Program-made: the position numbers and the translations under genes
Notes under the pieces: generated by a model
Databases searched by the model: none
Seen by the model: only the letters and a program-made list of their open reading frames with translations
What the model was told of the DNA's origin: nothing
In this document: positions 514 through 57,725 of the stretch, in pieces
Position numbering within the stretch: the first letter of the stretch is position 1
Layout of the letters: every line of letters starts with the position of its first letter
Source of the DNA: an uncultured Candidatus Peribacteria bacterium
Lineage (GTDB): Bacteria; Patescibacteriota; Gracilibacteria; BD1-5; UBA6164
Assembly (NCBI GenBank): GCA_964404065.1
Contig: CAYOIP010000001.1
Coordinates: 21,721-85,720 of the forward strand
Direction of reading: 5' to 3'
DNA length: 64,000 bases

Positions 514-3162
514 TTATTTTTTCAAAACTAATTTATCATTTTCAATACTCAAAAGTACATCATCTCATGATTTTAATTCATCTTTTAATATAAAGTTTGA
601 AAGTTCATTTAAAACTATGTTTGTAATAGCTCTTTTCATAGGACGTGCTCAAAATTCACTATCAAATCAAACTTTTATTAAGTATTCTTTTAATTCTTTT
701 GAAAAATCTATTTTTATATTTTTAGCTTCTAATATTTTACAAACGTCTTTTAGTAATATTTCAACTATTTCTAAAATCATTTCGTGATTTATAGGATTGA
801 AAACTATTATATCATCTATTCTATTTAAAAATTCTGGTCTGAAATAATTCTTTAACTCTCATAACATTTCTTTATTTATTTCATCTTCTGATTTTTTTTC
901 TTCTATGAGAGAAGCAATTTTTTTACTTCAAATATTAGATGTTAAAATAATTATAGCATTTTTAAAATTAACAGTTCTTCATTTACTATCAGTTAATCTA
1001 CCATCATCAAGAACTTGTAAAAGTACATTAAATACATCAGGGTGAGCTTTTTCAACTTCATCAAAGAGAATTACGCTATATGGTTTTCTTCTAACAGCCT
1101 CAGTTAATTGTCCTCATTCTTCATATCAAACATATCCAGGAGGTGCTCCTATAAGTCTTTGAACAGAGAATTTTTCCATATATTCGCTCATATCAATTCT
1201 GATAAAAGCATCTTTAGAATCAAATAAATTTAGAGCTAGTGCTTTTGCAGTTTCAGTTTTACCAACTCAAGTAGGACCAAGAAATAAAAAGCTTCAAAGA
1301 GGTTTGTGTTCATCATTTAGTCAAGCTTTTGCTCTTTTAATAGCATTTGCAACTGCAAAAATGGCTTTATCTTGTCATACAACCGATTTTTTCAAATACT
1401 CTTCTAAATGCAATATTTTATCTTTTTCGCTTTGAACAAGTTTTGAAACAGGAATAGATGTCCATTTTGAAATTATTTCTGCAATATCCTCATCAGTTAC
1501 TTTATCTCTTAAATAAGATTTTCCTGAGTTTTTTATTTCTTCAAGTTTATTATCAATTTCAGAAATTTCTTTTTCTAGAGCAGGGATTTCAGAATAACTT
1601 ATTTTAGCTACTTCTTGGTAATTTGCTTCTCTTTCAAAAGTTTTTGCTTTTATTTTTAATTCTTCAATTTTTTCTCTTAACTGCTTTGATGCAACAATTA
1701 AATCTTTTTCTTTTTTCCAAGATATTTCTAAAGATTTATATTCTTCTTTTTTGGAAGCTATTTCGTGAGATAGTTTTTCTAATCCCCCCTCTAACTCCCC
1801 CCTAGCAGGGGGAGGAGGATTTTGGATTTTCCCCTCCTGCAAGGGAGGGGTTAGGGGAGGGGTATTTTCTGACTTCTTCGCCTCCAACTCTATCTCCAAA
1901 TTCCTTATTTTTTTCTCTAAAATATCAAGTTCAACAGGTTTTGAAATAGTTTTTAATTTTACTGAAGATAATGCTTCGTCAATCAGATCAATGGCTTTAT
2001 CAGGAAGTTTTCTATCAGTAATATATTTTATACTTAATTCAACTGCTGAAATTATAGCATTATCAGTTATTTTTATTCAGTGATGAGTTTCGTATTTATC
2101 TTTTATTCATCTAAGTATAGCTAGCGCATCTTCTCTTGAAGGTTCATCAACTAATACTTGTGCAAATCTTCTTTCTAAAGCTGGATCTTTTTCAATATAT
2201 TTTCTATATTCATTTATAGTTGTAGCTCAAATCAAATGCAAAGCTCATCTAGCTAAACTTGGTTTCAAAAGATTTCAAGCATCGGCTTGTCATTCCTGAT
2301 TTCAAGCTCAAACTATAGTATGAATTTCATCAATAAAAAGTATTATATTTCAGTTAGATTTTTCAACTTCTTTGATAACTGCTTTTAGTCTTTCTTCAAA
2401 TTCTCATCTATACTTTGCTCATGCAAGCAAAGCTCACATATCAAGAGTTATAATTCTTTTTCAAAGTAAATTTTCTGGAACTTCACGCTCAACTATTTTT
2501 CTAGCAATTCACTCAATAATTGCTGTTTTTCAAACTCAAGGGTCTCAAACTAAAACTGGATTATTTTTTGTCCTACGAGATAGTATTTGAATAGTACGTC
2601 TAATTTCTTCTTCTCTTCAGATTACTGGATCTATTTTTCCATTTCTTGCTTGCTCCACCAAATCTATTCAATATTTTTTCAGAGCATTTAGTTTATTTTC
2701 TGCGTCATTTGAAGTTACTTTTTCTCAATTTCTAAACTTTTCAATAACTTTTAAAATATCATCATATTTTATATTTAGAGTAGAGAATATGTTTTTTATT
2801 TTTTCGCTTCAAGATTTTAAAATTGCTAAAATAAGATGTTCTTCTGTTATAAATTCGTCTTTGTTTTTTCAAGCAATATTTTCAGCTTCTCTTAAAATGT
2901 CATTTAGAGGGTAAGAAATCCTCAAATCATAATGTCATTCAATTTTTGGGAAATTATCAATTTCTTTTTTAATACTTGATTTTAAAATCATTAAATCGGC
3001 TCCTAAATCAAGAAGTATTTCTTTTACAATGCTATCACTAGATTCAAGCATAGAGTAAAGTAAATGAAAATCAGTGATTTCAGGATTTTTTAAATTATTT
3101 GCAAGATTTTGGGCTTCTGCAATCCTAGAACTTGCATTTATGGTAAATTTTTCGATGTTCAT
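514..3162 (-). CDS. clpB: ClpB disaggregase (AAA+ chaperone), 882 aa, with a repeat-derived insert in the middle domain
   Basis: N-terminus [18 protein letters not shown].... NBD1 Walker A VGDPGVGKTA at ~2521-2550 has three Gly encoded by TGA. NBD2 FLGPTGVGKTE. C-terminus [15 protein letters not shown] then TAA. Standard-code fragments 1375-1899 and 2935-3162 are in the same frame. Confidence 0.95.
1784..1862. repeat. GC-rich palindromic element, double-arm copy A, inside the clpB CDS in frame
   Basis: cccccctctaactcccccctagcagggggagg-aggattttggatttt-cccctcctgcaagggaggggttaggggagggg. Two inverted units, each with its own hairpin. Read in frame as [32 protein letters not shown] (visible in ORF-track entry 1375..1899). 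Confidence 0.9.
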
Positions 3163-3255
3163 ATATTTTTAATTAAAAATTAAATTAGCACATATGTATT
3201 ATATGTGCTAATTTTAAAAGTCAAAAGATTTTTTTGCAAATAAAAAACACCACTT

Positions 3256-4221
3256 CTAATGATGGTGTTCATCGTGTCAATGTTCGTCATGTCAATGATT
3301 ATTATATTGTTCATCATGTCAGTCATTTGCAATCTTCTTTTTTCACTCAATATAAGCAAAGTACCGAACTGAAGTTTTAAATATTTCAAAAACTCATCAT
3401 AAATATCATAAAACTAGAATTAAAGCTATAAATATAATACTTAAAAGTAAAACTGTAATTATCAAAATAGCTTTAGTTGTGATAAAAGTAATTGCAGAAG
3501 CTATTAAAAAAGGGAAGAATAAAAATACTAAAAAGTTAATTATGATTCTTATATTTACTAAAAACATAAAAAAATATATTTTTGTTGTTGTTCTCAAATT
3601 TAAGATAGAAATTTTTATTGACTCAGAAATAGACTCTAAAGCTTTTTTATTGTTTAAAACTATTTCAAATCTAGCGTAAGCAAATAAAATATTTACTATT
3701 GTAGAAATAACAAGTAAAAATAAAAATACGTAACTTAAATATAAAATATATTCAACTCAAACAAATCTTAAACAAAAAAGATAAATATTCAAAAGACTCA
3801 TAAATTTGAACTGAGCAAAAATATTTCAAAATTCAAATAATGGCAAAAATCTATAAAGTCAGTTTCAAATACTATCAGATACGCTTACATAAGTTTCTAG
3901 AGTTTCTTTTTTTGAAATATACCAAATCAAGCCTCATTCAAAAATAGGCATAACTATCATATATAATACAAGAAGAATACTTCAAGAAATTAGTATTTCT
4001 GAAAAATATCAAGAGTGAAAAACATTTAATATAACTTTTAATGCTTTATCTTCTTGATGAAATAATTCAACATAAGTATAAATTGTTTGATAAACAAGTA
4101 TTATCATCAAAAAAATTATTGAGATAAGCCCAGGTATAAAATAAAATTTTTTTATTTTATGATCTTCATGCATTATATCTAGTGCTTTTGTGATAATATT
4201 TTTTTTAAGATTGTCATTCAT
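3256..4221 (-). CDS. multi-pass membrane protein of unknown function with a His/Asp/Glu-rich C-terminal tail
   Basis: Fragments 4009-4221 and 3406-3597 share a frame and join when TGA=Gly. Several hydrophobic spans. Ends ...NDGHDEQYNNHGHDEHGHDEHHH then TAG at 3258-3256. Confidence 0.6.
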
Positions 4222-6337
4222 TGTTAAAAACTCTTTTAATAAATTTTATAAAATCATAAATTCATTTGTTTGTAAAAATTATTTTTTTATCACTATTAAC
4301 GTATGATTTATAAATTGCATCAATTATAGCAAAATCTCAAGGTGAATTTTCATTTAAAGAAAATCATTTTATATTTTTATCTATTAAAACTACGTTTTCT
4401 TTTGTATAAAGACTTTTAAAAATTTGTTTTTCATCAAGAATTTGGACAACTTTTTTTTCTAATTCAAATCTTTTTTCTTTTGATAATACATTTGATTTCA
4501 ATTCTTCAAGTAAAATATCTAAACTTAGATTTTTTATATTTGAAAATGAAAATCATCATTTTGATTGACTAGAGTGAAAATATGGGAAAATATTATAATT
4601 TTGATATCATAAATTTAATCAAACTAAAAGTAAATCATAATTTTCTACTCAATCTAATATTTCTTTGTTTAAATCATCAATTGTTACAGAATTTATATTA
4701 ATAATTATTCAGTAACTTTCTAGATTATTTTTAATAATATTTACAACTTGTGAAAGTTCTTTATTGTTATCAATGTAATAAAGCTTTAAAACAAATTTTT
4801 CTAAATTTTCATTATAAAAATATTTTTCATCTAAAGATAATATTTTTGTCTTTTGTTCTTCACTTATTTCCTTTGGTTTTTCTACAACTCAAAAGTAGTT
4901 TTTTTCTATATTTGCTAGTTTTTCTTTATCAGTAGAAAAAACTATGTTAAATTCTTCAACTAGCTGCTTTTTTCCTCAAATTACAAATTCTATTTTATAA
5001 TTATTTTCTCAAACTACTAGGTTTCTATAACTAAGTTTTAATCTATAATAAAACTTAGTTTCTCCGGATTTATAGCTTGCCAATTTGTATCAATTTATAT
5101 AAATTTCATCTGGATTTTTATCTTTTGTAATTCAAGTTATTAGTATATTATCTTCACTAAAGAAGTTGTATTTTTTTGTAAAAGGAGAAGATATAAAACT
5201 TAAATCAGAGTTTGTTTTTCAAGTATTTGTTTGTCAGCTTGCTGAATTTTGAGTTAATTTATTTAATAATTGGTCTTTTTTATAAAATCAATTCTCATTT
5301 ATTATACTTACTAAATTTGTATTTTTTATCTCATTATTTTGTTTTAATCATTCCTCTAAAAATGGATTAGTTACTTCTTTATATCAATTTCACAAAGTTT
5401 TTAAAATATTTCAAGTATCAACTTTTCATAAAATAAAATTTCTTAAATTAAAATCTTTAATTTTATCTTCATTTATAAACAAAGAAACATATTGATTTAA
5501 AAAATATGGTTTTTGTTCAAGTCTAGGAATGCTATCTCAAATAATTTTATTTTTATCAAAAAATATATTTACATCTTTAAGTCTCAAAAAATGAGCTTCA
5601 TCTTTAAATATTTTAAAAATATATTTTGATATTAAAATATTTGATTCTTTATAATTTTCATTTTTTGTTAAAATAAGTTTTTGAATTCACAAACTATCAT
5701 CATAACTTACAGTTTCTACTTTGTAAGGACCAGAATAAATTCAATCAATTGGATTAAATTTTCCATATAATTCTTTGTTTCAAATATTATCTAAGACTGT
5801 TTTTGGAACAATTGGTTGGAAAAGAGCTTGTAGGAAATTTACATCTTTTAATTTATTTGAGAAAGTTATTATTCATGATTTTTCTTCAACAATAGTATCC
5901 TTTAGTAAAGATCATAAAGAATTATTTATATCAGAATTTTTTATGATATTGTAAGTTGCAACTACATCTTGGGCAGTTATATTTTCTCAATTTGACCATT
6001 TAACATTATCTTTCAGATAACATTCTATATAATTTAGGTTTTTTACATCACAATTTGCTAAATCAGATACAATTTCTTTTTTTTCAAAATCATATTTTAA
6101 TAAGCTTCTGTAAAGCATATAAATAATATTTTTATTGTAATCATTTGAACTTAAAAGTGGGTTTAGATGTGGAAAATCTCAGATAATTCATTCTGACACA
6201 CTTCATCATTCGCTAGGAGATTCAAGCGAATTATCGTATAAATAAACGTAAATTATGTGTCATCAAATTATAAATGAAAAAAATATACTTATCAGAAATA
6301 AGTATTTTTTTAACCTATTTATATTATCGCTATTCAT
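4205..6337 (-). CDS. ABC-transporter substrate-binding protein, family 5 (peptide/oligopeptide-binding-like), N-terminal membrane anchor
   Basis: 710 aa translated codon by codon with no TAA/TAG. MNSDNINRLKKYLFLISIFFSFIIGG anchor; FPHLNPLL; KDNVKWSNGENITAQDVVATYN. The 3' end overlaps the next start by 17 nt. Confidence 0.7.
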
Positions 6338-6429
6338 AAAAGTTTAATTAGTGTTAATTCTTTAAAAAACTAAAATTACTCAAAAACGAAAAGTTCGAGG
6401 AAGAAAAATTTCAAATTTTTCAGTAATTT

Positions 6430-6648
6430 TTATTTTATGAAAAAAAATACTAGAGAGTTTATAGTAAATAAAGTTCAAAGAACAATGGTTGTAATATGTA
6501 AAACTTTTTCTCATCATCTTTTTGTAACTTCTCACATTCATCCTCACATACTTGTAAGATTTAAAGAAACATTTTTATTTTGAACTAGTATTACAAGTAT
6601 AAGTAATATAGAAATAATTATTTGCGATATTGTTAAAGCAGTAGTCAT
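6430..6648 (-). CDS. secG: preprotein translocase subunit SecG
   Basis: 72 aa: MTTALTISQIIISILLILVILVQNKN...MGGGMGEVTKRGGEKVLHITTIVLGTLF. This is the SecG pattern (LLQ-like, Gly-rich loop, RG.E..L...T). Confidence 0.6.
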
Positions 6649-6651
6649 TTT

Positions 6652-7047
6652 TTATTTTTTAGAAAATAATATCGAATACAAAATATTCAAAATTGTAAAA
6701 ATTGCAACAGCAATTATAAAATTTATGCTTCAATTGATTTCAAAAGTCATTCCAGGAAGTGCTAAAATGTTATTTATTGCTTTTGATAACAACCATAATA
6801 AAAGTGCATTAATAAGCAAACTTACGATTGGATAAATGAAAAATAATGGAATTCCTAAAAGTTTCAAAACTGGTTTCACAAATGTATTTAAAAGTCACAA
6901 AATAACTCATCAAAGTAGATACGTTTTCCAAGCGTCAATTCAAGCTGGCAAAACTACAACTGCATTGGGATGAGTTTCATTATTTAAAAGATATGCAATT
7001 ATAAAAAGAATAGAAGCATTTAATAAAATGGAAAAAAAGATTTTCAT
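6652..7047 (-). CDS. DUF360 / phage-holin-4-like small membrane protein
   Basis: 131 aa; LLGGVILGLLNTFVKPVLKLLGIPLFFIYPIVSLLINALLLWLLS resembles the DUF360 core. Confidence 0.5.
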
Positions 7048-7069
7048 AGTTTTAAAGTTAGAAAATATT

Positions 7070-8494
7070 TTACAATTTATACTCAATTTTTTCTCAAATT
7101 CAAATATTTCCAGAAATTACATTTGATGATTTTATATAATCAAGTTCATCTATTTCTGGAGCATGGCTTTCTGGTATAACGGAAAGTTTATTTTTTGAGA
7201 TTTCGTGAATATATCAAGTTTGAATTTTTCAAACTCTTTGCTCATATTTTTTATCATAAATTTCTTCTAGGATTTCTCTCATTTCATAAACTCTTTGCTC
7301 AATAATTTTGTCATCAACTTTATTACCAAGTTTTGAAGAAGTTGCTAAAGGTTCATCATGATAACCAAAAAGAGAAACACTATCAAATTCATATTTTCTT
7401 GCAAAATTTTTTAGCATTTCAAAATCTTTTTCATCTTCCCCGGGGAACCCAACTATAAAGTTTGTATGAAGAAAAACATTTTTAAAATTTGCTTTTATGA
7501 AATCTAAAACTTTATAAATATGACTTTCATCGTAAAATCTTCACATAAGTTTTAAAACTTTTGGAGAAATATGTTGAAATGGAAGATCAAAATATGGAAT
7601 CATTTTTTTCAGTTTTGCAAGTCTTTCTAGATGAGAAAAAGTCAAGATATCGGGATACATATAGTAAATTCTATATTTAAAATCTCATGGAACTTTATCA
7701 ATTTCTTCAAGTAAATCTACAAGTTTAGATTCTCAGTAGATATCTGTTCAATATCTTGTTAAATCTTGAGCAATAATTTGAATTTCTTTAATTCCAGAAG
7801 AAATCATCGTTTTCACTTCAGTGAGTATATCTTCGATACTTCTTGATTTTTGTCTTCATCTGATGTTTGGAATTATACAAAAAGTACAATTATTATCACA
7901 TCATTCAGATATTTTTAGATATTCATATCCAAAATCAGCATTTAGGTAAGCTCTTACATCATCAGATTGCCAAATAAATGCTTTTGATGAAATATTGTCA
8001 CCTCAGATATTTTTTAAATAGTTTTTTAATTTTTCTGTTTTTAAGCTTATAATATTTTGATTTAGCTTTCTAAATCCCCCAACCTCCGCTACGCTTTGGT
8101 TTTCCCCCTTTACAAAAGGGGGAAGCGAAGTATGAGCAGGGGGATTTTTCATCCAATCAAGATTTTTACTTTCATTATGAGGAATAACAGCATAAAGATT
8201 TTTAAGGCTTGATAAAAATTCGTCATCTTTTACTTCTGTATAACATCACATAACAATAATTTTCTTTCATTTATCGTCATATTCTTTTATAAGATTTTCA
8301 GCTTCTTTTCTAGAACTAGATAAAAATCAGCAAGTATTTATTATCAAATACTCAACTTCTTTTTCGTCTGGATCAGTAAAAAACTCTATATCAACTTCTG
8401 AAGATAAATTAAAAATATTTCAAACCATAAATTCTAAATCAACTAAATTTTTAGAACATCCAAGGTTTATAGTGGAAAAATAAAATGTTTTCAT
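7070..8494 (-). CDS. rimO: ribosomal protein S12 methylthiotransferase RimO (radical SAM) with a repeat-derived insert
   Basis: MKTFYFSTINLGCSKNLVDLEFM; NTCGF; radical-SAM ISEGCDNNCTFCIIP; C-terminal TRAM-like end. Fragment 7229-7417 is in the same frame. 474 aa. Confidence 0.85.
8072..8147. repeat. GC-rich nested palindrome (divergent variant, copy B) inside the rimO CDS in frame
   Basis: aaatccccc...cgctt..ttttcccccttt-ac-aaaagggggaa-gcg...gggggattt. Outer 9-bp and inner 10-bp inverted repeats. Translated as NPPAHTSLPPFVKGENQSVAEVGGF. Confidence 0.8.
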
Positions 8495-8504
8495 GAAGCA
8501 AAAA

Positions 8505-8531
8505 ATAATAAGCTAAATTTTAGCTTATTAT
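8505..8531. repeat. AT-rich junction palindrome ATAATAAGCTAAA(T)TTTAGCTTATTAT, copy 1
   Basis: Lies between the ubiA-like stop (8528-8530) and the rimO ATG (8494). On the minus strand it is followed by a T-run and then the ATG. Confidence 0.7.
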
Positions 8532-9325
8532 ATGGAAAAAGTAGTTTTGGCAAATTTAATATAAAATATAAAAACAAGTATCATATACAAAAAATAATAA
8601 AATTGATATTTTCAAAAAGGAATATTATTTTTATATTTTGATTTAATAATAAATATTATAAAAAATAATGGGAAAAATAATATCAATATTCATTTAAAAT
8701 AAAAAATTGATGCTATAAAAGAAATTAAGAAAATACTTCAAAAAAATAAATTTGGTAAATATTTTATGCTAAATAAATTTTTATATAAAATTAAATTTAA
8801 ACATGCAAAAGAACTTCATAAAGTAAATAAGATAAAATTGTTTTCTAAAAAAGGATTTATTCATAAATAAATCGTTATTAATAACCATTTTATAAAATAA
8901 ATAATAAAAATATTTATTTCTCTGAGAAAATATTTATTTCTCAATTTAATTTTAGGATGACTATAAATAAAATTTAAAAAATAAAGCAAGAAAATAAAAA
9001 TCAAACTGATTTTTGAAATAAAAAAAGAAATAATAACTCAAATAAGAGGAATAATAACTCAAAGTATAAAAAATAAATTTTTATTTTTTATATCTAAATA
9101 TAAATTATGTTTTTTATTTTTTAAATCCTCATTTTTATCATAAAAATCATTAAGAAAATATATAAAACTATAACTTAAAGAATATCAAAAAATTCATAAT
9201 AAAAAGTGAAATAAATCTATTTCAATATTATAATTAATTTTAAAAATTAAATATAATAAAAAAAATAAATAAAAATTTCTTAAATTATGACTGATATATT
9301 TTATTTCTTTATAATCTTTAAACAT
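8528..9325 (-). CDS. UbiA-family prenyltransferase (integral membrane)
   Basis: 265 aa, highly hydrophobic; Asp-rich motif LNDFYDKNEDLKN (NDxxDxxxD). Confidence 0.6.
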
Positions 9326-9333
9326 GATAAAAA

Positions 9334-9347
9334 ATAATAAGCTAAAA
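9334..9347. repeat. half-copy of the AT-rich junction palindrome
   Basis: ataataagctaaaa lies immediately between the Fic stop (9349-9351) and the ubiA-like ATG (9325). Confidence 0.5.
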
Positions 9348-9348
9348 T

Positions 9349-10353
9349 CTAAACATACCTATTCATATTTAATAAATAATTTTCTACAAATAAATCTCTC
9401 ATCAAACTCACATCATTTAATTCATAAATTGCTAAAATTGCATTTATGTAATCTCTGTCTTTTATTTGCAAAAAACTAAACGGCACAAATCAATTTTTAA
9501 TAAGTGGAATATTTGCACTAATTCTTGAAGTTCTTTTATTTATATCCTTAAAAATTTGAAAATATGGAATAAAAACAAGTATAAAAAGTGATTGCTCAAA
9601 AGGATTTTTTATTTCATTAAGTTTTTGTAAAAATATACCAAATTGATCTTCAAGCTGAAATCTATTTTCTAACGGAGTATAACTTGACCCTCAAATACTT
9701 ACTGAAGAACTTCTAATTTTTCATAAATAATCTTCAAGCAACAATCATTTTCAAAGAAATTTATGAATATTTTGAAATTCAGTTTTACTAAAATTTATAT
9801 TATTTCTATTATCAATTATGTACTTTATTGCATTTTTGTGATTAAGTATCATTTGAGTTTCAACTTGGCTTTTTCACTCTGCAACAGAATTATATTTTAT
9901 AAGTATTTCTGTATCTAGATAACTATATGTATTTCATTCAAGTTTTGAAGATGAAAAACTCAGATCAATAAGCAAATTTTCTATTGCTCTTAAATTTTCT
10001 TTGTAATCATAAGTTGAAAGTATATTTTGATCTAAATATTTTTCTTTAATTAACTCATATTTTTCTCATAAGAAATTCGTTTCATTTGGTTTATAATTCA
10101 GTAAAAAATCAAAATTATATGATTTTTTTTCTCTTTCAAAAAATGGTTTTTGAAAATAATTTGAAATATTTTGTTTAATTTTATACTTTCATTTTGAAAT
10201 TTCTATAATTTTATCATCTTTTATTAAATCTTTAAAGTCTCTATAAATAGTTGTTCTTTCAAGATTTAACTGATTTATAACATCAGAAACTTTTATAATT
10301 TCTTTTTGAGTAAGTAGATTTAATATAAATTCTTGTCTTTGTTTTTTATTCAT
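9349..10353 (-). CDS. wHTH + Fic-domain protein with a degenerate Fic motif
   Basis: 334 aa. N-terminus MNKKQRQEFILNLLTQKEIIKVSDVINQLNLERTTIYRDFKDL (DeoR-like HTH). The Fic core position reads QIFKDINKRTSR instead of HPFxDGNGRxxR. Confidence 0.6.
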
Positions 10354-10373
10354 AATTTGAATTATAAAAATAA

Positions 10374-10435
10374 TGTTGCAAATATTATATTTTTTGTTGC
10401 AAAAATTGCAACATTATTTAGTAAGAATTGCAACA
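10374..10435. promoter_or_regulatory. cluster of TTGCAAC/GTTGCAA half-sites, including the perfect palindrome TGTTGCAAAAATTGCAACA (10395-10413)
   Basis: Four half-sites lie directly upstream of the HTH-Fic gene start (10353). Candidate operator. Confidence 0.4.
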
Positions 10436-10469
10436 TAGTTTTCAATAAATGGATTTTTGCAACTTAAAT

Positions 10470-10503
10470 CTAAAAATAAAAGGCTCGGAAAACCGAGCCT
10501 TTT
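10470..10503 (-). terminator. GC-rich intrinsic terminator of the standard-code cassette
   Basis: Minus strand: TGA-caaaaGGCTCGGttttCCGAGCCttttatttttag. This is the only GC-rich terminator stem seen in the window. Confidence 0.75.
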
Positions 10504-10504
10504 G

Positions 10505-11083
10505 TCATGTCATCATTGCAATTTGCATCACAATTGATAACACTACCCATTCAAATGTTACAGCAATTTCCCAAACATCTTTTTTTGTTATTTTTCTTCC
10601 TTTTGTTTCTATAAACAACTGGATTAACATGGATGAAAGTGCAATTCCATTTGCAATCCAAATAGTTACATCAACAGGAGGAGTTTTTAGATAATGCATT
10701 ACTCCTGGGAATACAACTACAATTGCAGCAACCATTAACGAAATTTGGGAAATGTTTTTATTTTTTTTATTCATATACCCAAAAATTGCTAATAGTAGAA
10801 CGCTTGAAAATACTAGCCCTTGAGTAGGATTTAATCCTATGTTTTTCATCCCACCTATGATGATACCTAATACAACACTTATATCACCTATCAGCATAAA
10901 TGAATAAAACTTCCAAGGACCATTATTTCTTTTCATAACTGCTATTTGTGCTATCATCAAGATTGTGAAACCTAACCAAGATAATAAAACGATATCATGG
11001 TTAGAGTGCTTGGTAGCATATATTGCTGGCAGAAATGATGCCATAGCCAACATATATGCAATATTTTGCAGTGACATGGTCAT
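10505..11083 (-). CDS. 7-TM membrane protein (possibly PQ-loop/SemiSWEET-like duplication) written in the standard genetic code
   Basis: The only long intact ORF in the supplied track (192 aa). 12 Gly all GGN, 5 Trp TGG, no internal TGA; ends in TGA at 10507-10505. AGGAG Shine-Dalgarno at ~11086-11090. SFLPAIYATK...LSW resembles a PQ-loop. Under code 25 it would read on to TAA at 10420-10418. Confidence 0.75.
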   Translation of the reverse strand: MTMSLQNIAYMLAMASFLPAIYATKHSNHDIVLLSWLGFTILMIAQIAVMKRNNGPWKFYSFMLIGDISVVLGIIIGGMKNIGLNPTQGLVFSSVLLLAIFGYMNKKNKNISQISLMVAAIVVVFPGVMHYLKTPPVDVTIWIANGIALSSMLIQLFIETKGRKITKKDVWEIAVTFEWVVLSIVMQIAMMT

Positions 11084-11149
11084 TTCTCCTAAAAATGAGT
11101 GAATTTTCCTATACTGAATTGAGAATTAATCTACCAGTATAAGATATGA

Positions 11150-11177
11150 AATATAAACACAAAACTATTTTTGTCAA
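11150..11177 (-). promoter_or_regulatory. candidate sigma70-type promoter of the standard-code cassette
   Basis: Minus strand TTGACA-16 nt-TATATT, immediately after the MFS stop codon. Confidence 0.35.
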
Positions 11178-11178
11178 A

Positions 11179-12357
11179 CTAATCTTTCCTCAAAAACCAG
11201 AAATAAACAGAGCTTAAACTAAAAAATAAAATTATTCATAGAACCAAAAATCCTAAACTATAAGATTTATTCATTATAAAAGCAATAGGAATCATTAAAA
11301 GTATTTGAATAATAGATGATAAAAATCATTTTATTGAAAGTATAGTTGATTTATATTTTTTTCATGGAATTAAGTTTATTATATGATCAGTATAAATATC
11401 ATACCTTCACCACATATATCAAATTACAACTGAAAATAATAGTCAAAGTAAATATGGATTTGTTATAAAATAGGCTCAAATATAATAAAAACTAAAAACA
11501 AAAATTTCAATTAACATCAATTTATGAAAATCAATTTTATCTTCTATCTTATGAGCAAATTGTCATACAATAAACCGAACAAATCTTGAAAGTCACATTA
11601 CAAATCATAAAAAAATTACTGGATAACCTAAACTTTCTAAATATGGAGTTCTAAAAGATCAATCAACTTGTAAAAATGCTATAATAACTGATGAAAATAT
11701 TATTACCTGAAATAATCATGTTCAAGAAGATAATTTTAAAGTTTCTTTTAAATTTTTTATATTTATTTTTTCATTTTCATGATGTTCTGATTTAACCGGG
11801 AAAAGTAAAAAAGCTACTAAAAGTCATATTATATCTATTCATAAAGCTATTATAAAAGGAAAAACTAAACTAATTTTTGTAAAAAAAGGTAGAGTAATTA
11901 TAAAAAATATACTTAAAAACGAAACCCATCATTTCATAGAAGATGAAATTTTTTTAAATTTACTTTCTTTTCAAAGAGATGTTAATGTATCATGTAAAAA
12001 GATTGAAGTATTTCATGTAGTAAAAGCATCTGCTCACAGTGCCATAAATATAGCTCAAGCAAAAAAATACCAAAAATTATCTCAAATAACAAACCATAAG
12101 CTAGATAATATTAAAAAGATTTTACTTATAATTATAGTAATTTTATTTCAAAATTTATCTCAAATATATCATGCAGGAAGCTGAAAAACTAAAGATGCAA
12201 TATATCAAGCAGTCATATAAAATCATATTTCCTGAGCTTGAGAGTTTTGCAAAGATAAATAATAAATACTCAAAATTGGAATAAAGTTTCTTCTTGAAGT
12301 GAAAAGTATTATAAAATGTTTCCAAATATTGGATTCAAGTCAAGTGAGTTTGAACAT
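11179..12357 (-). CDS. MFS-type transporter
   Basis: 392 aa, about 12 hydrophobic spans; motif-A-like GYIGDKFGNK. By hand count about 27 Gly are TGA versus 2 GGN. Confidence 0.65.
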
Positions 12358-12366
12358 TGCAAAAAA

Positions 12367-12392
12367 ATAATAAGCTAAATTTAGCTTATTAT
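12367..12392. repeat. AT-rich junction palindrome, perfect 26-nt copy
   Basis: ataataagctaaatttagcttattat lies between the stop at 12399-12401 and the MFS ATG at 12357. Confidence 0.75.
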
Positions 12393-12398
12393 ATAAAA

Positions 12399-12935
12399 TT
12401 ACCATTTAGGAACAAATTTTTTTTGGCTATAAGGTTTTATTCATCAATATCTTTCAAATATTTCTATTAATTTTCATAAATCAGTATATTTATCATCTAA
12501 AAAATATAATATTGGATCTCAAGAACTCATTAAAAAAGCAGATTTTCAAGAACCATATATATAAGCAGTATTTTTTGATGGTCAAGATGATTTACGTTCT
12601 TCAAGAAAATTAAATCTTCAATTAATTTGTTGTTTTGCTTCAATAATTGCTTTTTCAACTTCTCAACTATATTTTTCTCAAGGAAATCAATGAGAACTTA
12701 ATTTTCTAACTAAATTCTCAGATAACAGATTTTGAAGTTCAAATAAACGAATAGAATCACTAATTTCTAATATTCCATTAACAAGTAATACTCTACGAAT
12801 TACTTCTTGTACAGGTTGAGGTAATGAAAAAAAATATTTTTTTAATGTATCAAAATTTAGATAATAACCTAGTTGTTCTTTTTCTTCCAATGAAAAATCT
12901 TGATCAAATAAAGGAATAGTTAGATTAGAGTTCAT
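12399..12935 (-). CDS. hypothetical protein (178 aa)
   Basis: Fragment 12687-12935 extends through TGA codons to TAA at 12401-12399. No motif recognised. Confidence 0.5.
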
Positions 12936-12996
12936 AAATAAAATTAAAAAAATAAGAATTATTTATAATCCTTATTTATAAAAAGTCAATATTTTT

Positions 12997-13461
12997 TTAC
13001 AACTTAAATATTTTTATAAGTTTGTCTGTAAAACTTAATTCTCAGTTTTCATCTTCTACTATGAAATTTGGTAAAATTCATTTTAAATTTAAAGCAATAT
13101 TATTATCAATAGTTAAATCTAAAAAGTTAATTCATTTTTTTACCAAAGCAAGTCTTAAGATAACGGCATTTTCTCAATCGTAAATCAAAGTATAAGATGA
13201 AATTTTTGAAAAATCATAAAATGAATTATTTACTTTTATTCATAAATTTGTGATATAAACTTGAGTAGTTTCTTCTGAATTATTTTCTAAAAAAAAGCTA
13301 ACTCAAGTAATCAAAATAATTAAAAAACTCATCACATATTGGCGAGTCAAAAATCACCAAACAACAAGTCAAATTATCACAGATAAAGCTATTATATACC
13401 ACAAATTTCATCTATTTTTGTCATTTGAAAAACTCCAATTATAAATTATTTCATTGTCCAT
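12997..13461 (-). CDS. hypothetical membrane protein (154 aa)
   Basis: MDNEIIYNWSFSNDKNRGNLWYIIALSVIIGLVVWGFL...; two hydrophobic spans. The ATG lies 2 nt after the upstream stop. Confidence 0.5.
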
Positions 13462-13463
13462 TT

Positions 13464-13817
13464 TTATGAAAAATTATCAATTATTAATTTAAATATAATC
13501 CAACTCAAACTTGATAAAACAAGTCAGGCAAGAGCATAAAATATAGTCTTTTTTCATTCAGATTTTTCTCATTCAAGTCATCAAAGAGATATTCTAAAGG
13601 CTCAAATAATTATAAAAATTATTGAAATAGTTGCAGCAAATCACATCAGATAATCAATAGCATAGCTTATAATTTTTGGAATATCTCAAGTGTGAATATC
13701 TCAAGTTCTAATTTTTGTTTGATCAACTCACCCTAATATTCCAGCATCTGTTGCATAGATTTTTGAATGAAGTGAAAAAAGTAGTGGAATTATAAAATAT
13801 TTTATTTTATTTATCAT
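13464..13817 (-). CDS. T4SS-pilin-like small secreted/membrane protein (VirB2/TrbC-like)
   Basis: 117 aa. Signal peptide, then two hydrophobic helices flanking a GGLEGEKSEGKK loop. Same layout as the 48758-49132 paralog. Confidence 0.5.
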
Positions 13818-13841
13818 AATTTCAAGTTATCATTTAAATTT

Positions 13842-13879
13842 CCCCTCTACCTCAAGGGAGAGGGGTTAGGGGTGAGGGC
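13842..13879. repeat. GC-rich palindromic element, single-unit copy C
   Basis: cccctctacctcaagggagaggggttaggggtgagggc. Its terminal ...GGGCTATAT supplies the TAG stop of the upstream gene. Flanked by TTAAATT on both sides. Confidence 0.85.
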
Positions 13880-14586
13880 TATATTAAATTATAATTATCA
13901 ATTCAAGTTTTTAAGTTTGTAAAACTATCTAAACGAGGATTATAATATTCGCTTAAAAATTTTACAAGTTCAGTTTTATCAAGTTCAGAAGCTTTTATTC
14001 AAATAGATTCCAAACTAGTTTTTATAGTATTTATTCTAGTAGCAAGAGCTTTTTTGTTTTTATTTAAATTTTTTATTTGGTTTTTTATTCATATCAAATC
14101 ATCTTGTCCGTTTATTGATGCCCAGAAGTTTTTAAATTTCCCCACAAAACTTAGATCTCTAACAGAATTATCTCACTCATTATCTACAGCAACAACTATA
14201 TAAAAATCTTTTTTCATGATTTGAGCAACTTCAATTAATTTTTTTAAATATTCTATATATTCATAAGTTTGATTTTGTAGTAGAGAATTTGTTTGATTTA
14301 CAGCCAGTGAATTTAATTTGTTTAGGTATGTTTCTATATCAAGTTTTGTAGAACGAATCATGATTTGAATAGGGAAATCAATAGAGTTTAGAAATCTTTG
14401 AAAACTCATAATAATAGCATCTTGTTCTTCAATACTTTTAAGTAAAAAGTTTATAGTTGAACATTTTAATACTACTCTTGCTGAAAAATCTTTCATGATA
14501 ATTACATTGTCCCTTATTTGGGAAAAAGGTAAATATCTTTGTGTTGAAACATCTGAAATTTGTTTTTTTGCTTGATTTACTGGCAT
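13879..14586 (-). CDS. VirB4/PrgJ-like N-terminal fragment (235 aa, no ATPase domain)
   Basis: STQRYLPFSQIRDNVIIMKDFSARVVLKCSTINFLLKSIEEQDAIIMSFQRFLNSIDFPIQIMIRSTKLDIETYL resembles the N-terminal region of Gram-positive/CPR VirB4 ATPases. It ends ...NLI-TAG at the repeat edge. Confidence 0.45.
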
Positions 14587-21716: not shown

Positions 21717-21750
21717 AAAACATCTTTTAAAAACAAATACTTCTTAGTTT

Positions 21751-24584: not shown

Positions 24585-24664
24585 CCCCCCACCTAGCCTC
24601 CCTCGCAAGCTGGGGAAGAACTAAAAAACCCCTCCCGGCTTGCGAGAGGGGGTAGGGGAGGGGC
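24585..24664. repeat. GC-rich palindromic element, double-arm copy E, in the nrdA-nrdB spacer
   Basis: ccccccacctagcctccctcgcaagctggggaag-aactaaaaaa-cccctcccggcttgcgagagggggtaggggaggggc. Confidence 0.9.
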
Positions 24665-28867: not shown

Positions 28868-28946
28868 TGGAGCGAGGGACCAGGTTTGAACTGGCACACC
28901 CAAGGGTTGAAGCCTTAGTACACTCACTCTTTTATGTTACCCTCGC
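28868..28946 (-). tRNA. tRNA-Gly with anticodon UCA (reads UGA), CCA encoded
   Basis: GCGAGGG-TA-ACAT-AAAAGAGTGA-GTGT-A-CTAAGG-CT[TCA]AC-CCTTGG-GTGT-GCCAG-TTCAAAC-CTGGT-CCCTCGC-T-CCA. Cloverleaf with a 7-bp acceptor, a short variable loop, and the Gly identity set G1:C72, C2:G71, G3:C70, U73. Confidence 0.85.
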
Positions 28947-29067: not shown

Positions 29068-31131
29068 ATGTTAGAAACACCAAATTACGTTGAGATTATT
29101 TCAAGTGAGTTATGATTTAAAAATTTTCAAATTGAAGTTGTTTTATCTTTAGTAGGAGAATGAGCTACTGTTCCATTTATTGCACGTTATAGAAAAGAAA
29201 GGACTTGAAATCTTGATGAATGACAAATCAGAGATATTATAGAGTTACAAAAGAAACAAGAAAATTTATTTAATGCAAAAAATACAGCCATTAACTGAAT
29301 TACTGAAGTTTGAATGATGACGGATGAATTAATGGCAAATATTATAAACGCAAAAACTCTAAAAGAAGTAGAAGAAATTTATAAACCATATAAATCAAAG
29401 AAAAAAACAAAAGCAATGCTTGCAATAGAAAAAGGTTTTCAAGTTGTAGCAGATAGTATAAAATGAAATTATTTAGAAATTCCAGAAAATTTATTAAAAG
29501 ATTATTCTAAAGAAGAAATAATAGAATGAAGTTTAGAAATTATTTGAGCTGAGATTTCAGCAAATGGAGAATTAAGACATCTTTTAATAGAAGAACTTAA
29601 AAAATATTGAATGATTTCTTCAAATAAAAAATCAGACAAAATGCTTGAAAAACTAAACGAAAAAGATAAAGAACAAATTAAAAAATTTGAAATATATTTT
29701 GAAAATTCTCTAAAAATTAGCTATATAAAACCATATCAAATATTAGCATTAAATAGATGAGAAAATCTTTGAATTTTGACAGTTAAAATAGAAAAAGATG
29801 AAATAATTTTTGATAAAATTAAAAATAAATATGCAAGAATTTTAGAGTTGAGAGAGGAGTTTATAGATGAACTTGAAACAGCTTTTAAAATATGATACGA
29901 AGCACTTTTTTCTTCAGTAGAAAATGAAATTAGATCGCAGTTAAATGAAATTTGAGAAGATGATTCTATAAAAACTTTTCAAACAAATTTATCTGCTTTG
30001 CTTTTAACTGCACCAGAATATGGAAAAACTATTTTAGCAATAGACCCAGGGTATAGAGCATGATGTAAAATAGCAATTTTAGATAATTTATGAAATCCTC
30101 AAAAGTTTGATAAAATATTTTTACATGAAATATTAAATGCTCGCGCGAAACTTCAAGAAATATTTTCAAAAAATAAAATTGATACAGTTGTTATATGAAA
30201 TTGAACTGCATCTGACGAAACCCAAGCTTTAGTTTGAGAATTATTTTCTGGAGATATTTTTATTGTAAATGAATCATGAGCTTCAGTTTATTCGGCTTCA
30301 GAAATCGCAAAAGAAGAATTTCCTGATTTAGATAGTTTAGATAGATGAACAATTTCTATTTGAAGAAGATATATTGATCCACTTTCAGAACTTGTAAAAG
30401 TACCAGTTGGAAGTATATGAGTTGGTATGTATCAACACGATATGCCAGAGAAAAAACTTGAAGAAAAACTTTGATATGTAGTTGAAGATTCTGTAAATCA
30501 AGTTTGAATAAATGTAAATACAGCTTCAATTTATCTTTTAAATCATATTTCTGGAATTGATAAAAGACAAGCAAAAAAGATTTATGCTGGAAGACCATAT
30601 AAATCTAGAAAAGAACTTCAAAAAGTTTTGTGAGAAAAAGCTTATGAGCAAGCAATTTGATTTTTAAGAGTTCCAGAAAGTAAGGAAGTTCTTGATAATA
30701 CAGATATTCATCCAGATCAATACGATTTAGCAAAATATATTATAGAAAATAAAAAAACAAAAGTTGATGATGAAATGAAAAAAATATATGCTGAAGTAAA
30801 TTCTGATACAGTTGATTTTATAATTGAATCTTATAATAATATTTGAAAAGAAAAAAGAGTGAATTCTACTCACTCAAAAGCAAAGAAAGCTGTTAGTATA
30901 GAAAGTTTAAAAGTTTGAGATGTGCTTGATGGAGTTGTAAGAAATGTAGTTGCATTTTGAGCTTTTGTGGATGTTTGATTAAAAAATGATTGACTTGTTC
31001 ATATTTCAGAGTTAGCTGATAGTTTTGTAAAAAATCCTATGGATATAGTTCAAGTTTGAGATAAAGTAAAAGTAAGAGTTACAAATATAGATTTAGAGAA
31101 AAATAAGATTCAATTAAGTATGAAAAACTAA
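29068..31131 (+). CDS. tex: transcription accessory protein Tex (YqgF-like + S1 domains)
   Basis: 687 aa, every codon checked. GEGATVPFIARYRKERTGNLDE; ILAIDPGYRAGCKIAILD; S1 domain [31 protein letters not shown]. Confidence 0.9.
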
Positions 31132-35694: not shown

Positions 35695-35728
35695 CCCCCA
35701 CCTAACCTCCCCCTTATCAAGGGGAGGG
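35695..35728. repeat. GC-rich palindromic element, single-unit copy F, starting 1 nt after the recR stop
   Basis: cccccacctaacctcccccttatcaaggggaggg; hairpin CCTCCCC-ttatcaa-GGGGAGG. Confidence 0.85.
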
Positions 35729-35935: not shown

Positions 35936-35951
35936 ATCATCTATTTTTTTG
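35921..35951. terminator. bidirectional terminator hairpin overlapping two convergent gene ends
   Basis: atagatgat-ttataa-atcatctat followed by T7. Confidence 0.5.
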
Positions 35952-36150
35952 TTACTTCAATATATGAAGGAGCTTTGTATCATTCCATAAAATTATACTC
36001 TTCTCATAATCATTCAAGTTTTCATCATTGTACTTCAATTGCCATTCTAGTAGCATCTGCAAATCAGTCTAATATATCTTGTGGGATAGGTTTTCAAGAA
36101 TTTAGTCTTGCCCACATACCATTAGTAGCATTTCATAAATTTTCACACAT
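35941..36150 (-). CDS. small hypothetical protein (69 aa)
   Basis: MCENLGNATNGMWARLNSGKPIPQDILDGFADATRMAIEVQGGKLEGLGEEYNFMEGYKAPSYIEVTKK. Weak call. Confidence 0.3.
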
Positions 36151-38801: not shown

Positions 38802-39362
38802 TTAATTAGTATATTCTCTTATTTTATTTACAATTTCTCTTCAAGTTATCATACTTTCTTCATTTCTACTAAAATATAAATATAAATCAGTCATAGATTT
38901 TTTTAAATTTTGTTTTTTATCATTACCTCAATTAAAAAATGTTCTAACACTTTCAATTATTTTAATTAATCCAATATTAATATCTTCTTTATCAATACTA
39001 TCTATTAAATCAATTAATCTATCAAATACCATAACTAAATCAAGTCAATAAAAATCTTCATCATTTTTATTTTCAAAAAAAGATGTTATAATATTAAATG
39101 CTCAATTTATATCTCAATATTTAATATAATTAACAAAGTTTATCATATTTTTAATTCAAAAAAAATCTTTCAATCATTTTCATATTTTCATAGCTAAAAA
39201 AGTCTCATCTTCTGTTAATCATTGTTCAGTATAAAATCTAACATGTTCTGCAATCATATTCTGAGCAAAATCTATTCTTCATTTTCAATTAGGTTTTCAA
39301 GCTAATATTAATAATCTTTGTCACATTCTTGAAAGATGTTCTTCAGGTGTTCTAGGAGGCAT
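38802..39362 (-). CDS. hypothetical protein (186 aa)
   Basis: Open under code 25. The stop lies 5 nt before the next ATG. No motif recognised. Confidence 0.45.
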
Positions 39363-55373: not shown

Positions 55374-57725
55374 ATGTTAAAATACATAAAATTCACTTTT
55401 CTAATCATTTCTCTTTTATTTTCATTAAGTGTTTATGCTTGAGTAGTTCCTGGAACAATTATTAGTTCTACGCAAACATGAGGTTGATGATGTTGAAGTC
55501 AATCTTGTATTTTAAACTATACTTGTGCCTGTTGAAATGCAGTTGCTGATAGTATGAGTTGTTGAACTTATAATGATTCAGCTTGTTGAGATTCAGTCGC
55601 TGATAGTATGGATTGTGCTTGTTGGTCATCATACTCAACAAATAATAGTACAACACATTATTTTTCTTCAAATCTTTCAACAGATTCTACTAAGAGTTGT
55701 CAAGTTAGTTTTATTTGAAGTTATGAATGTTGAAATACATCTTGTTCTGCTACTACTTGATATAATACTGATATGTCTCCAAATACGGCATATCAAAACT
55801 CTATGCCTTCTTGGAGTTCATCAAGTCATTCTAGTTCTACTTGTAGTATGAGGTGAAGAACAGCAACTAATGATTCCTCAGTTCCAATAGCAACATTAAA
55901 TTGAGTTTCATCAGTTTTTACTTCAGATAATGATAAATGGTGTAATATAAAAAAATATAGATCTGAATCTTGATACACATATAAAGCAGATGAAAATCCT
56001 TGATGTGAAAGTTATAGAAAATCAAATACTACTGAAAATCCTTGAATATGAGAAGATTTATTAAAATGACTTGAAATAAATATACCTTGAGATGTTTCAT
56101 GAATATGAGAAGTTCAAGTGAGACTTTGAAATTGTAGTAAAACTTATAAAGTTACAAATCAAGATATAACTTCTTTAATAAATTCTTCATGAGTTTGGTA
56201 TAATCCAAATCAAAAAAATAGTTTTACAATTCCTTATAGTTGAAATATTACATGATGATCTTTTATGTGACAAAGTTGATTATTATGATCTTTTTGAGTA
56301 ACTAGGTTGGATCAATGTTTAGAAGAATGAAAAAATTCCATCTCAGTTTTGATAAAAGATATGGCAAGGAGTAATAGTGATTGACTTGTATTATCTGCAA
56401 ATGTATGAGCAAAATTTACTGCATGAACAATAAATATAGACAATTCAAATTCAAAACTTAACTTAACTTGAGATCTAGAAACTACATCATTAAGTTGAAC
56501 AACAGTTTCAGGAGGATTTAATGGAACACTAAGTAATTCTTGAGTTTGGAGAAACTATTCTTTGACTGGATGAATAAAATCAGTTGAAGAATATAGATGA
56601 TGAGCTTTTAATGAATGTAAAAGTTTTACTTGATCATTAACTTGAGACTGTAATACTAGTAGTGTTACGCCAAAACCAAGTGCAACTAATTGACTTGTAT
56701 GGACTGCACCAAGTTGAGTTCAAACAGATTGAAAATTTATGCAATTCAAATGTGATACTTTAGGTCCATTTCCAACAAGTGCTGAATGTGCAACTTGATG
56801 TCCTACTTGAAAAGAATGGAATGCAAACACTTGAAAATGTGAGGCAATAACTTGTAAAGCTGTAGTTTGATGAGTTGAAACTACAATTATAAATGGAACT
56901 AATTGAGTAGTAAATGCTGATGGAACTTGTGTAGCATATTGTATTCCAGGGCATAGTGTGAGTTGTGTAGTAAAAGAGTGATGAAGTCTTGCCTGAGAGT
57001 GTTGATCTGCAAATGGAACTATAGATAATAATAGTTTCCCACTTTTTACATCATTATGTAATAAATGAGTATTTGAAAAAACTGATGAAGTTTGAATAGA
57101 CTGAACTTATAATTGGAAATGTAAAACAGAAACATCTTTTGTAGATTGTAGTGCATATAAATCTTGTAATCTTCCTTGGGGGTGAAATATATTACATGGT
57201 CAAAGTGTTACAGCATATAAAGATTCAATAGTTCAATTAGCATCAGATTGTAGTTTTGAAATGAGAACATGTAATTATTGAATTTTAAGTGGATCTTATA
57301 CTAATCCAGTTTGTGGTAATTATTGTAACAATCAATCGTATGTTCCACCTCCATTTTCTAGATATATAGTTAATCCACCTAATAGTTCTGCTCAACGGAT
57401 TTCTAATTTACCAGATACTTATTGGTGAGCTAATTTTGTAGCATATAGGGATTTTTATGTATCAGAAGATTTACATAATGCAACTTTTTATATGGCATCT
57501 GATAATTATTGAGAAGTATTTTTAGATTGAGAATTATTATCTACTACGCCATCTAATTCATTTGAAACTAATTATTCAGTAATTACTAAACCTATTTTAA
57601 CAGCTGGTTTACACAAAGTTAGATTTGTTGTAAATAATACTCATAAACGGTGATGAGGTATATTTTCAATGCAAGTAAATGGTAGAGAAATTTGGAAAAG
57701 TGATGATAAATGGTGTATAGAATAG
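55374..57725 (+). CDS. secreted Cys-rich protein (783 aa) with a PA14-like C-terminal domain
   Basis: All codons checked. Signal peptide; many CxxC/CxxxC modules (CPTGKEWNANTGKCEAITC; CNLPWGGNILHGQSV...C). C-terminus NATFYMASDNYGEVFLDGELL...GLHKVRFVVNN...GGIFSMQVNG. Confidence 0.6.

Follow-up and report, generated by a model that had tools for sequence, protein, structure and literature searches.

A standard-code-style single-gene cassette with a TGA stop in a Gracilibacteria chromosome that reads TGA as glycine

Phages that have been predicted for Gracilibacteria and Absconditabacteria are among the closest described counterparts of the gene considered here. According to Liu et al. (2023, mBio; PMC10746230), 34 of the 38 predicted Gracilibacteria phages are compatible with the standard bacterial code (table 11, or code 11), i.e. 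they have no in-frame TGA; the TGA stops of the predicted phages are backed by a nearby TAA or TAG, such elements may move between standard-code hosts and hosts using code 25, in which TGA specifies glycine, and the integrated prophages are all TGA-dense. Here we describe a single chromosomal gene of comparable character from a 64,000-nucleotide stretch (hereafter the window; positions 21,721 to 85,720 of contig CAYOIP010000001.1, assembly GCA_964404065.1). It lies in a cassette of ~0.7 kb (11177-10472, minus strand) that would comprise a sigma-70-type promoter, a strong Shine-Dalgarno (SD) motif, a TGA-free open reading frame (ORF) of 190 codons, a TGA stop and a terminator. The gene is foreign to the genome around it, and we propose that it is probably a self-contained cassette of a family that evolved where TGA is a stop, which arrived laterally and whose source was likelier a code-neutral mobile pool among Gracilibacteria. 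It is a variant of kinds already known, namely lateral gene islands and the code-11-compatible elements of code-25 bacteria; what sets it apart is that its orphan family, met with so far in code-25 genomes alone, has retained its standard-code features, a TGA stop abutting a terminator among them, in two deeply diverged lineages.

The likeness to the code-11-compatible phages lies in the absence of in-frame TGA, the readability under either code and the link to code-25 hosts. However, those elements are whole genomes, whereas the cassette is a single chromosomal gene without phage neighbors, viral contig or PHROG match. Phage morons and single-gene islets are likewise compact promoter-gene-terminator units of deviant composition, set between resident genes with little spare DNA, but the cassette lies outside any prophage, in an island without an integrase, where the one repeat is a palindromic leader element of 36 nt that is duplicated ahead of two other island genes. 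A gene of the same layout comes from the Gracilibacteria themselves: a scan of ~1 Mb of their loci for the cassette signature returned one more clear case, an MlaA lipoprotein gene (Pfam E = 1e-44) at 9124-9858 of locus L054, its cassette lying within 9000-9950, from the metagenome-assembled genome (MAG) SO_2016_LW3 bin 25. It combines a TTGACA promoter with a GGGAGG SD and a GC-rich terminator, its glycines are written with 20 GGN codons and no TGA (P = 1e-9), and its GC content is 39% in a 26-27% GC genome. The two cassettes thus share promoter, SD, TGA-free ORF, GC-rich terminator and raised GC; unlike the window gene, an orphan with a TGA stop, MlaA belongs to a large diderm family and ends in TAA, and has no read-through problem. 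Given this case, single-gene standard-code-style cassettes recur in Gracilibacteria.

Standard-code hallmarks in a code-25 setting

The window has a G+C content of ~24%. Counting ORFs of 100 codons or more, it has 96 when TAA and TAG are the only stops and 26 when table 11 is applied (83 kb versus 10 kb, all six frames being summed and overlaps counted). Across its 50 predicted genes TGA and GGN codons stand at 1011:326, and TGG is still in use. In an alignment of the window MiaB with 18 standard-code homologues, eight of its 15 TGA positions match an invariant glycine and none matches tryptophan. A tRNA with the anticodon UCA (Table 1) displays the acceptor stem GCGAGGG/CCCTCGC (G1-C72, C2-G71, G3-C70) and the discriminator U73, which we take to be the glycine identity set of bacterial tRNAs. 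Since the MiaB TGAs align with glycine, the tRNA(UCA) is of the glycine type and the ORFs are rich in TGA, the window genome uses table 25 (TGA = Gly). Code 4 (TGA = Trp) was rejected for this genome on the MiaB alignment, and for the genome of the homologues described below on the glycine sites of holB and NMO. ARAGORN names the UCA tRNA tRNA-SeC, and its D-arm region appears unusually long; a scan of the window at the Rfam gathering thresholds reported zero RNA families, with this tRNA among the misses. Judging from MiaB, which is 63-79% identical to that of MAGs labelled Candidatus Gracilibacteria, Peribacteria or Patescibacteria, the host is a Gracilibacterium.

Against this background, the original prediction that a standard-code gene is embedded in a UGA=Gly genome is borne out, with the position and glycine codons that it gave. 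No table-11 ORF of the 64 kb is longer than the one at 10505-11083 (minus strand). The latter had been called the only long intact one, and this holds in so far as the other three table-11 ORFs of at least 120 aa are two fragments of larger code-25 genes and one antisense frame. All 12 of its glycine codons are GGN (five GGT, four GGA, three GGG), whereas TGA accounts for a 0.763 share of native glycine codons (P = 3e-8); among native genes with eight or more glycines the lowest TGA share is 50%, and the adjacent MFS gene has 27 TGA and two GGN, a count that we reproduce. Every other codon family of the gene is likewise off native usage, and its synonymous-codon log-likelihood (z = -4.8) is the lowest of the 50 genes. 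The expected rise in G+C over the neighbors is likewise found, clearly so at third codon positions (GC3 of 0.258 versus 0.106 +/- 0.031 in native genes, z = +4.9, native maximum 0.176) and to a lesser extent in total (32% versus 24.5%, z just 1.95). A profile in 100-nt steps confines the elevated values of 29-38% to about 10450-11150.

The signals around the ORF are equally foreign. Its AGGAG is the only SD-like motif upstream of a predicted gene of the window, none of the other 49 of the 50 predicted genes having one, in agreement with the earlier contrast to native leaders. Because the second ATG (11077) has the better SD spacing (8 nt rather than 2 nt) and the homologues align from that methionine, we prefer it as the start, so that the ORF stands and the product is of 190 aa instead of the 192 aa proposed at first; the alternative ATG at 11083 would add Met-Thr. 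Since promoter matches comparable to that upstream are frequent in AT-rich DNA (169 found versus 157 expected), the use of the cassette's own promoter is presumptive. One nucleotide past the TGA begins the hairpin AAAAGGCTCGG-tttt-CCGAGCCTTTT, with 11 pairs, six of them G-C, and -17.2 kcal/mol, which is the best in 20 kb and the strongest among the window's GC-rich hairpins. As a G+C-rich stem-loop directly followed by a U-run, it has the make-up of a Rho-independent terminator and would presumably act as one. The hairpin and T-run are thus present as first described, but the accompanying claim that every other terminator has an AT-rich stem goes too far, given GC-rich hairpins at 24629-24651 (CCCCTCTCGCAAGCCGGGAGGGG + T6, minus strand) and 35706-35727 (CCTCCCCCTTATCAAGGGGAGG); these are unusual for a 24% GC genome. 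Read in code 25, translation past the TGA covers 29 codons up to the TAA at 10420-10418, as previously noted, and the product would have 219 residues (190 + Gly + 28).

When 1.84e9 cluster representatives, standing for about 15e9 proteins, were scanned exhaustively with HMMER, one true homologue besides the gene itself was recovered, P0002 (41% identity, E = 2e-35), and a word-index profile search added P0004 and the truncated P0005. A further match, P0003 (E = 1.4e-08), was judged spurious, with 29% identity over ~40 residues of a repetitive 1437-aa protein. Four loci are known in all (the window, L002, L003 and L004), every one of them in a TGA=Gly genome. The homologues P0002, P0004 and P0005 are encoded next to holB on three syntenic contigs (L002, L003 and L004, respectively) of ~42% G+C from three independent samples. 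These contigs read TGA as glycine, having TGA at the glycines of holB GQ / LSKGAFNALLKTLEEPP and of NMO QGGMG. Their A2M protein shares 46% identity with a counterpart from a Gracilibacteria MAG, and their composition and TGA use are like those of 40-45% GC Gracilibacteria loci; these observations point loosely to Gracilibacteria as the identity of this second lineage.

The homologues carry the same set of standard-code features. A TTGACA + TAATAT promoter match precedes the L002 gene and is reported for all three second-lineage loci; the SD, GGAGGG, lies 6 nt before the ATG; there is no internal TGA (15 and 14 GGN codons); and a TGA stands directly after the last conserved residue (...EVAMLT), followed by a GC-rich hairpin and a T-run. 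The genes flanking them show no SD, and their stops are TAA or TAG. The two protein lineages (~41-42% identity) align from Met1 to Thr190, the residue before the TGA (...AM(M/L)T-TGA). Past this point the frame is not conserved: a 1-nt indel separates L002 from L003 5 nt after the TGA, the code-25 tails are 24 aa (L002), 82 aa (L003) and 28 aa (window) long, and the tails of the homologues have no similarity to that of the window. In every copy the next code-25 stop is beyond the terminator T-run. In the L003 stem one A-U pair has become a G-U wobble and there is an extra G-C pair at the base, so that the pairing is kept.

Between L002 and L003 the dN/dS ratio is 0.23 at dS = 0.48, which indicates that the homologue is a real gene under purifying selection within a code-25 lineage; since it is under such selection, the read-through arrangement is, on this evidence, compatible with function. 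The L004 allele (1039-1572, landfill metagenome 3300014205) is a pseudogene with a frame-shifting deletion of ~270 nt, and its flank departs from those of L002 and L003 ~60 nt beyond the terminator. Because this allele is frame-shifted, the cassette gene is dispensable, and in the second lineage too it is at a variable site.

The 240-nt intergenic and leader region between holB and the cassette (L002 2294-2535, L003 2425-2667, L004 895-1137) is 94-95% identical, compared with 84-88% for the coding sequence. It contains a hairpin, CCGATGG-n-CATCGG, as well as a CTTCC/CCTCC stretch with potential for pairing to the SD, and has no Rfam match. An exact-DNA scan of JGI metagenomes with this conserved leader recovered only L004. 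Rfam searches for a riboswitch or leader RNA, run at permissive thresholds on the window cassette and L002, gave terminator-driven noise only.

Origin of the cassette and rival explanations

Since homology ends at the TGA, with the terminator next to it and the later frame unconserved, the boundaries of the ORF are of standard-code ancestry, and the gene family must have arisen under a code with TGA as a terminator. A native code-25 origin of these ends is unlikely, because no native gene would put its conserved end at a glycine and follow it with a hairpin in an unconserved tail. The window copy, in turn, is an import into a variable island of a code-25 chromosome, as judged by its being an island gene of unameliorated composition with foreign expression signals. 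Because the only other carriers are code-25 organisms in which the standard-code features are kept, a code-neutral mobile gene pool among Gracilibacteria, comparable to the code-11-compatible phages, would be a likelier immediate source than the chromosome of a standard-code host.

With regard to the fate of the message, prfB is reported missing from the BD1-5 genomes available to the study PMC6851277. Given this absence and the presence of tRNA-Gly(UCA), UGA would be read as glycine by that tRNA in the host cell, and release factor 2 (RF2) is not expected there. Transcripts reaching the TAA at 10420-10418 would then add to the protein, after the glycine, a basic, cytoplasmic and non-conserved tail of 28 residues, while those ended at the terminator would be stop-less mRNAs, on which ribosomes would run off and need rescue. 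The core protein would evidently still be useful, because purifying selection acts on its homologue in a code-25 lineage.

Several observations weigh against this picture of a laterally moving cassette. There is no phage or mobile-element relative in IMG/VR, INPHARED, PLSDB, PHROGs or PADLOC, the INPHARED phages and PLSDB plasmids having been searched by tblastn, and Pfam assignments place no integrase or transposase in the island. The phage-style backup stop is missing, the next stop following 28 codons on in the window, 24 in L002 and 82 in L003. The absence of TGA from the homologue in the 42% GC lineage is by itself not significant (0.8^15 = 0.035). Finally, the proposed function comes from topology alone, with a poor AlphaFold model (pLDDT 59).

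The foremost alternative is a direct and recent acquisition from a table-11 chromosome, that of a host or prey, with the TGA stop simply being read through. The gene indeed bears all the standard-code hallmarks and is missing from sister genomes, and the MlaA cassette of L054, from a typical diderm family, shows that such imports happen. We nevertheless regard a direct transfer of this sort as unlikely. No standard-code relative was found by the HMMER, word-index and word-index profile searches among the about 15e9 proteins, which include Logan assemblies of the same runs, and scans of 185,579 GTDB species genomes, IMG/VR and JGI metagenomes returned no relative, whereas a host abundant enough for an epibiont ought to be sampled already. 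Moreover, the sole relatives are in another code-25 lineage and are old there (dS 0.48). The original prediction of a recent import from a table-11 bacterium is therefore upheld only in part: the gene is foreign and of standard-code ancestry, but no table-11 donor was found; and recency is plausible for the window copy, but the family has persisted over dS = 0.48 under purifying selection in the second lineage. A homology search had been expected to name the donor clade; it named none and offered no outgroup homologue on which a phylogeny could place the donor, and the best matches are only in code-25 lineages, an outcome that had been listed beforehand as counting against the idea. The other outcome so listed, code-25 homologues free of TGA by chance, does not describe the relatives found, in which SD, TGA stop and terminator recur.

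A further proposal is that the standard-code features are held by selection, either (a) as a code-dependent switch or (b) because the family belongs to a bilingual pool expressible both in code-25 epibionts and in their standard-code hosts. If true, either would explain why an orphan family retains the SD, the TGA-free ORF and the TGA stop in lineages that are 58% divergent, but we hold the proposal as a whole to be quite improbable, and the switch taken singly to be a shade more so. In the latter, the placement of TGA against the terminator would be kept by selection such that the intact 190-aa protein is made only when UGA is a stop or tRNA-Gly(UCA) fails. In the normal cell, read-through onto a stop-less mRNA would leave the product tagged, degraded or inactive; the trigger could be, e.g., a standard-code phage bringing RF2 or disabling tRNA-Gly(UCA), upon which the TGA-free cassette would be among the few host genes still translatable. 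Consistent with a switch, the TGA with its terminator, the SD and the TGA-free ORF are common to lineages differing at 58% of residues, TGA and hairpin alike persist in all three second-lineage alleles, the T-run of each copy comes before its next code-25 stop, and many predicted Gracilibacteria phages use code 11 (PMC10746230). Yet a stop past the terminator is expected by chance about half of the time (an estimate from base composition), and the retention of TGA by three close alleles falls short of statistical significance. Nor does the protein match any known defense or phage protein in PADLOC or PHROGs; the library searched yielded no phage of these hosts that bears RF2, and the L004 pseudogene marks the gene as dispensable.

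That the gene is simply a native Gracilibacteria gene, lacking TGA by chance or through an expression-linked codon preference, would agree with the confinement of all known homologues to code-25 genomes and with the unremarkable P of ~0.035 for zero TGA among 15 glycine codons in the 42% GC lineage. We consider it very improbable, however, as the corresponding P in the window is 3e-8 and all the other codon families deviate too, as its SD is the only one among 50 genes, as homology stops at the TGA with the terminator inside the would-be tail, and as the gene is missing in five sister species and sits in a variable stretch in each of the two lineages. An artefact of assembly or binning, with a standard-code fragment mis-joined into a Gracilibacteria contig, could produce the sharp GC step and the foreign signals but is scarcely credible, for it needs two mis-joins 0.7 kb apart in a region that a Logan assembly of SRR5011273, from a different assembler, reproduces with 100% identity over 10,715 bp (window 3155-13869) including both cassette junctions, the promoter begins 1 nt past the MFS stop, the terminator leads directly into the probable operator array of the native gene that follows, and the homologues are likewise embedded in code-25 contigs from three independent samples. 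The contig is thus not an obvious chimera at the assembly level.

The predicted membrane protein

An AlphaFold2 model from a three-sequence alignment (pLDDT 59, pTM 0.55) predicts seven transmembrane (TM) helices. Lysines and arginines in loops 2, 4 and 6 suggest an N-out/C-in topology, which would make this an inner-membrane protein with the read-through tail, where present, in the cytoplasm. Polar residues are conserved within the helices (Q44, Q111, N143, Q153, E157 and E176), and because of these our guess is that the protein could be a transporter or channel; acting on small solutes would be the most likely role for it.

The original prediction of a 7-TM protein resembling PQ-loop and SemiSWEET transporters is retained for the seven predicted helices only. 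These and the length of ~190 aa are shared with the PQ-loop/SWEET/SemiSWEET/KDEL-receptor superfamily, but the cassette protein has no PQ motif, no Pfam or PDB sequence match and no detectable internal repeat, and its Foldseek matches to these folds have E > 1. None of the three family members matches Pfam PQ-loop or MtN3_slv even at E <= 10, and a comparison of the N- and C-terminal halves by hhalign for a TM1-3/TM5-7 repeat, made on a shallow alignment of three sequences, gave a probability of 0.5% (E = 0.12). On the absence of a profile match and an internal repeat, membership in the PQ-loop/SemiSWEET/SWEET group was rejected. The best TM-scores against solved structures are 0.45 for KDELR and 0.44 for a SWEET (E > 1, with a model of pLDDT 59), and Foldseek found no match in the PDB at E < 0.3. 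The best viral fold match in BFVD is the unnamed 194-aa A0A898KB22 (E = 0.009, TM 0.51), a weak match given the low-confidence model. Sequence searches of Pfam, NCBIfam, PHROGs, PADLOC and the PDB yielded nothing significant or reproducible; HupE/UreJ was rejected, since its 18.8 bits lie below the Pfam cut-off of 23 and only one of the three members matches.

Genomic setting and significance

The cassette is part of a strain-specific island (Table 1) that, by Pfam assignments, comprises genes for a 178-aa protein of unknown family, the MFS protein, the cassette protein, an HTH-Fic protein and a UbiA-like protein. In the sister species represented by L005, L006, L007, L009 and L012 the same flanking genes are 52-86 nt apart with no island between them, the result that a comparison of sister genomes had been proposed to look for. 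As the four remaining genes of the island are AT-rich with abundant TGA, the island is composite, with the cassette alone in standard-code style.

Table 1. Coordinates of the cassette, its signals and the associated features of the window
Feature	Coordinates	Strand	Remarks
Strain-specific five-gene island, 4.5 kb	8495-12996	-	Between the DUF5673 gene (12997-13461) and MiaB (7070-8494)
-35 hexamer TTGACA, putative, sigma-70-type	11172-11177	-	Begins 1 nt past the MFS stop TAG (11181-11179)
-10 hexamer TATATT, putative	11150-11155	-	16-nt spacer; with the -35, 11/12 consensus match
SD AGGAG	11086-11090	-	8 nt before ATG 11077, 2 nt before ATG 11083
Coding sequence, 190 codons, no TGA; orphan-family predicted 7-TM protein	10508-11077	-	Homologue alignment, codon statistics
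TGA, stop in the ancestral code of the family, Gly in the host cell	10505-10507	-	Right after the final conserved residue, as in L002, L003 and L004
Intrinsic terminator, predicted	10472-10503	-	Stem 10503-10493/10488-10478, core GGCTCGG/CCGAGCC, loop TTTT, T-run TTTTATTTTT
Code-25 read-through tail GQKARFSEPFIFRFKLQKSIYGKLCCNSY, predicted, stop TAA 10420-10418	10418-10504	-	Crosses the terminator into the TTGCAA array of the next gene
tRNA-Gly(UCA)	28868-28946	-	Anticodon UCA; decoder that would turn the cassette TGA stop into Gly

A 36-nt palindromic element, ATATAATAAGCTAAATTTAGCTTATTATTTTTT (core TAGCTTATTATTTTTT), is present in exactly three copies in the window (8498-8533, 9329-9351 and 12359-12394), each ~5 nt or less before a gene start, viz. 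those of MiaB, the UbiA-like gene and the MFS gene; none flanks the cassette. Of the nine sister loci checked, eight have a single copy on the strand of MiaB, always upstream of this gene; L012 has an additional 2-mismatch match on the opposite strand, the L010 copy has two mismatches and L013 has none. As the element is threefold in the window and single in sister genomes, the island appears to have expanded through insertions in which the MiaB leader/terminator element was duplicated. If the MFS gene is begun at its longest ORF (12405), the frame crosses the element (12357-12405, minus strand); its true start is probably the ATG at ~12357 (MFKLTGLES...), immediately behind the element, which is also where MiaB and the UbiA-like gene start. 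A 16-nt repeat (10454-10469 and 12994-13009) was considered as an insertion scar and rejected, being at an estimated chance level for AT-rich DNA.

TTGCAA palindromes number five within the 87 nt of 10376-10462, versus 48 in the whole 64 kb. This array, inside the read-through tail, separates the cassette terminator from the start of the neighboring HTH-Fic gene (9349-10353) and is probably an operator array of the HTH-Fic regulator. The UbiA-like gene (8528-9325, minus strand) is extreme even for this genome, with 12.5% G+C, no GGN and nine TGA. Beyond the island lie a gene for a type-IV-secretion-system (T4SS)-pilin-like protein (13464-13817) and a weakly TraC-like one (13879-14586), both on the minus strand and both kept in sister genomes; such a type-IV-secretion-like cluster is typical of candidate phyla radiation (CPR) bacteria. 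Native genes of the window have no SD, and many carry a T-rich (C)TTATTTTTTAA ~10-20 nt before the ATG, e.g. upstream of 38802-39362, 35941-36150, 29068-31131 and 55374-57725, which may be a native promoter or initiation signal.

Genes of this kind are mis-annotated in public databases, with a code-4 product, a false tail and a late start. The public protein P0001 (NCBI/Logan) corresponds to window 10418-11053 (minus strand) in a code-4 translation that starts at an internal methionine and ends in a false 29-residue tail, WQKARFSEPFIFRFKLQKSIYWKLCCNSY (TGA as Trp plus 28 residues). The database proteins of the homologues, P0002 and P0004, are also overextended, at both ends. The cassette should be expressed unchanged in E. 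coli, which would make an orphan membrane protein of the CPR directly testable.

A changed genetic code is often viewed as a firewall against gene exchange, and the present locus is a concrete chromosomal case of the asymmetry of that firewall, a gene composed in the standard code having entered a TGA=Gly bacterium. In the second lineage purifying selection maintains the gene despite a stop that has turned into a sense codon and a terminator that has come to lie within the frame. Together, these observations point to a small, unsampled pool of standard-code-style cassettes that would be moving among Gracilibacteria, which fits the reports of code-11-compatible phages in this group.

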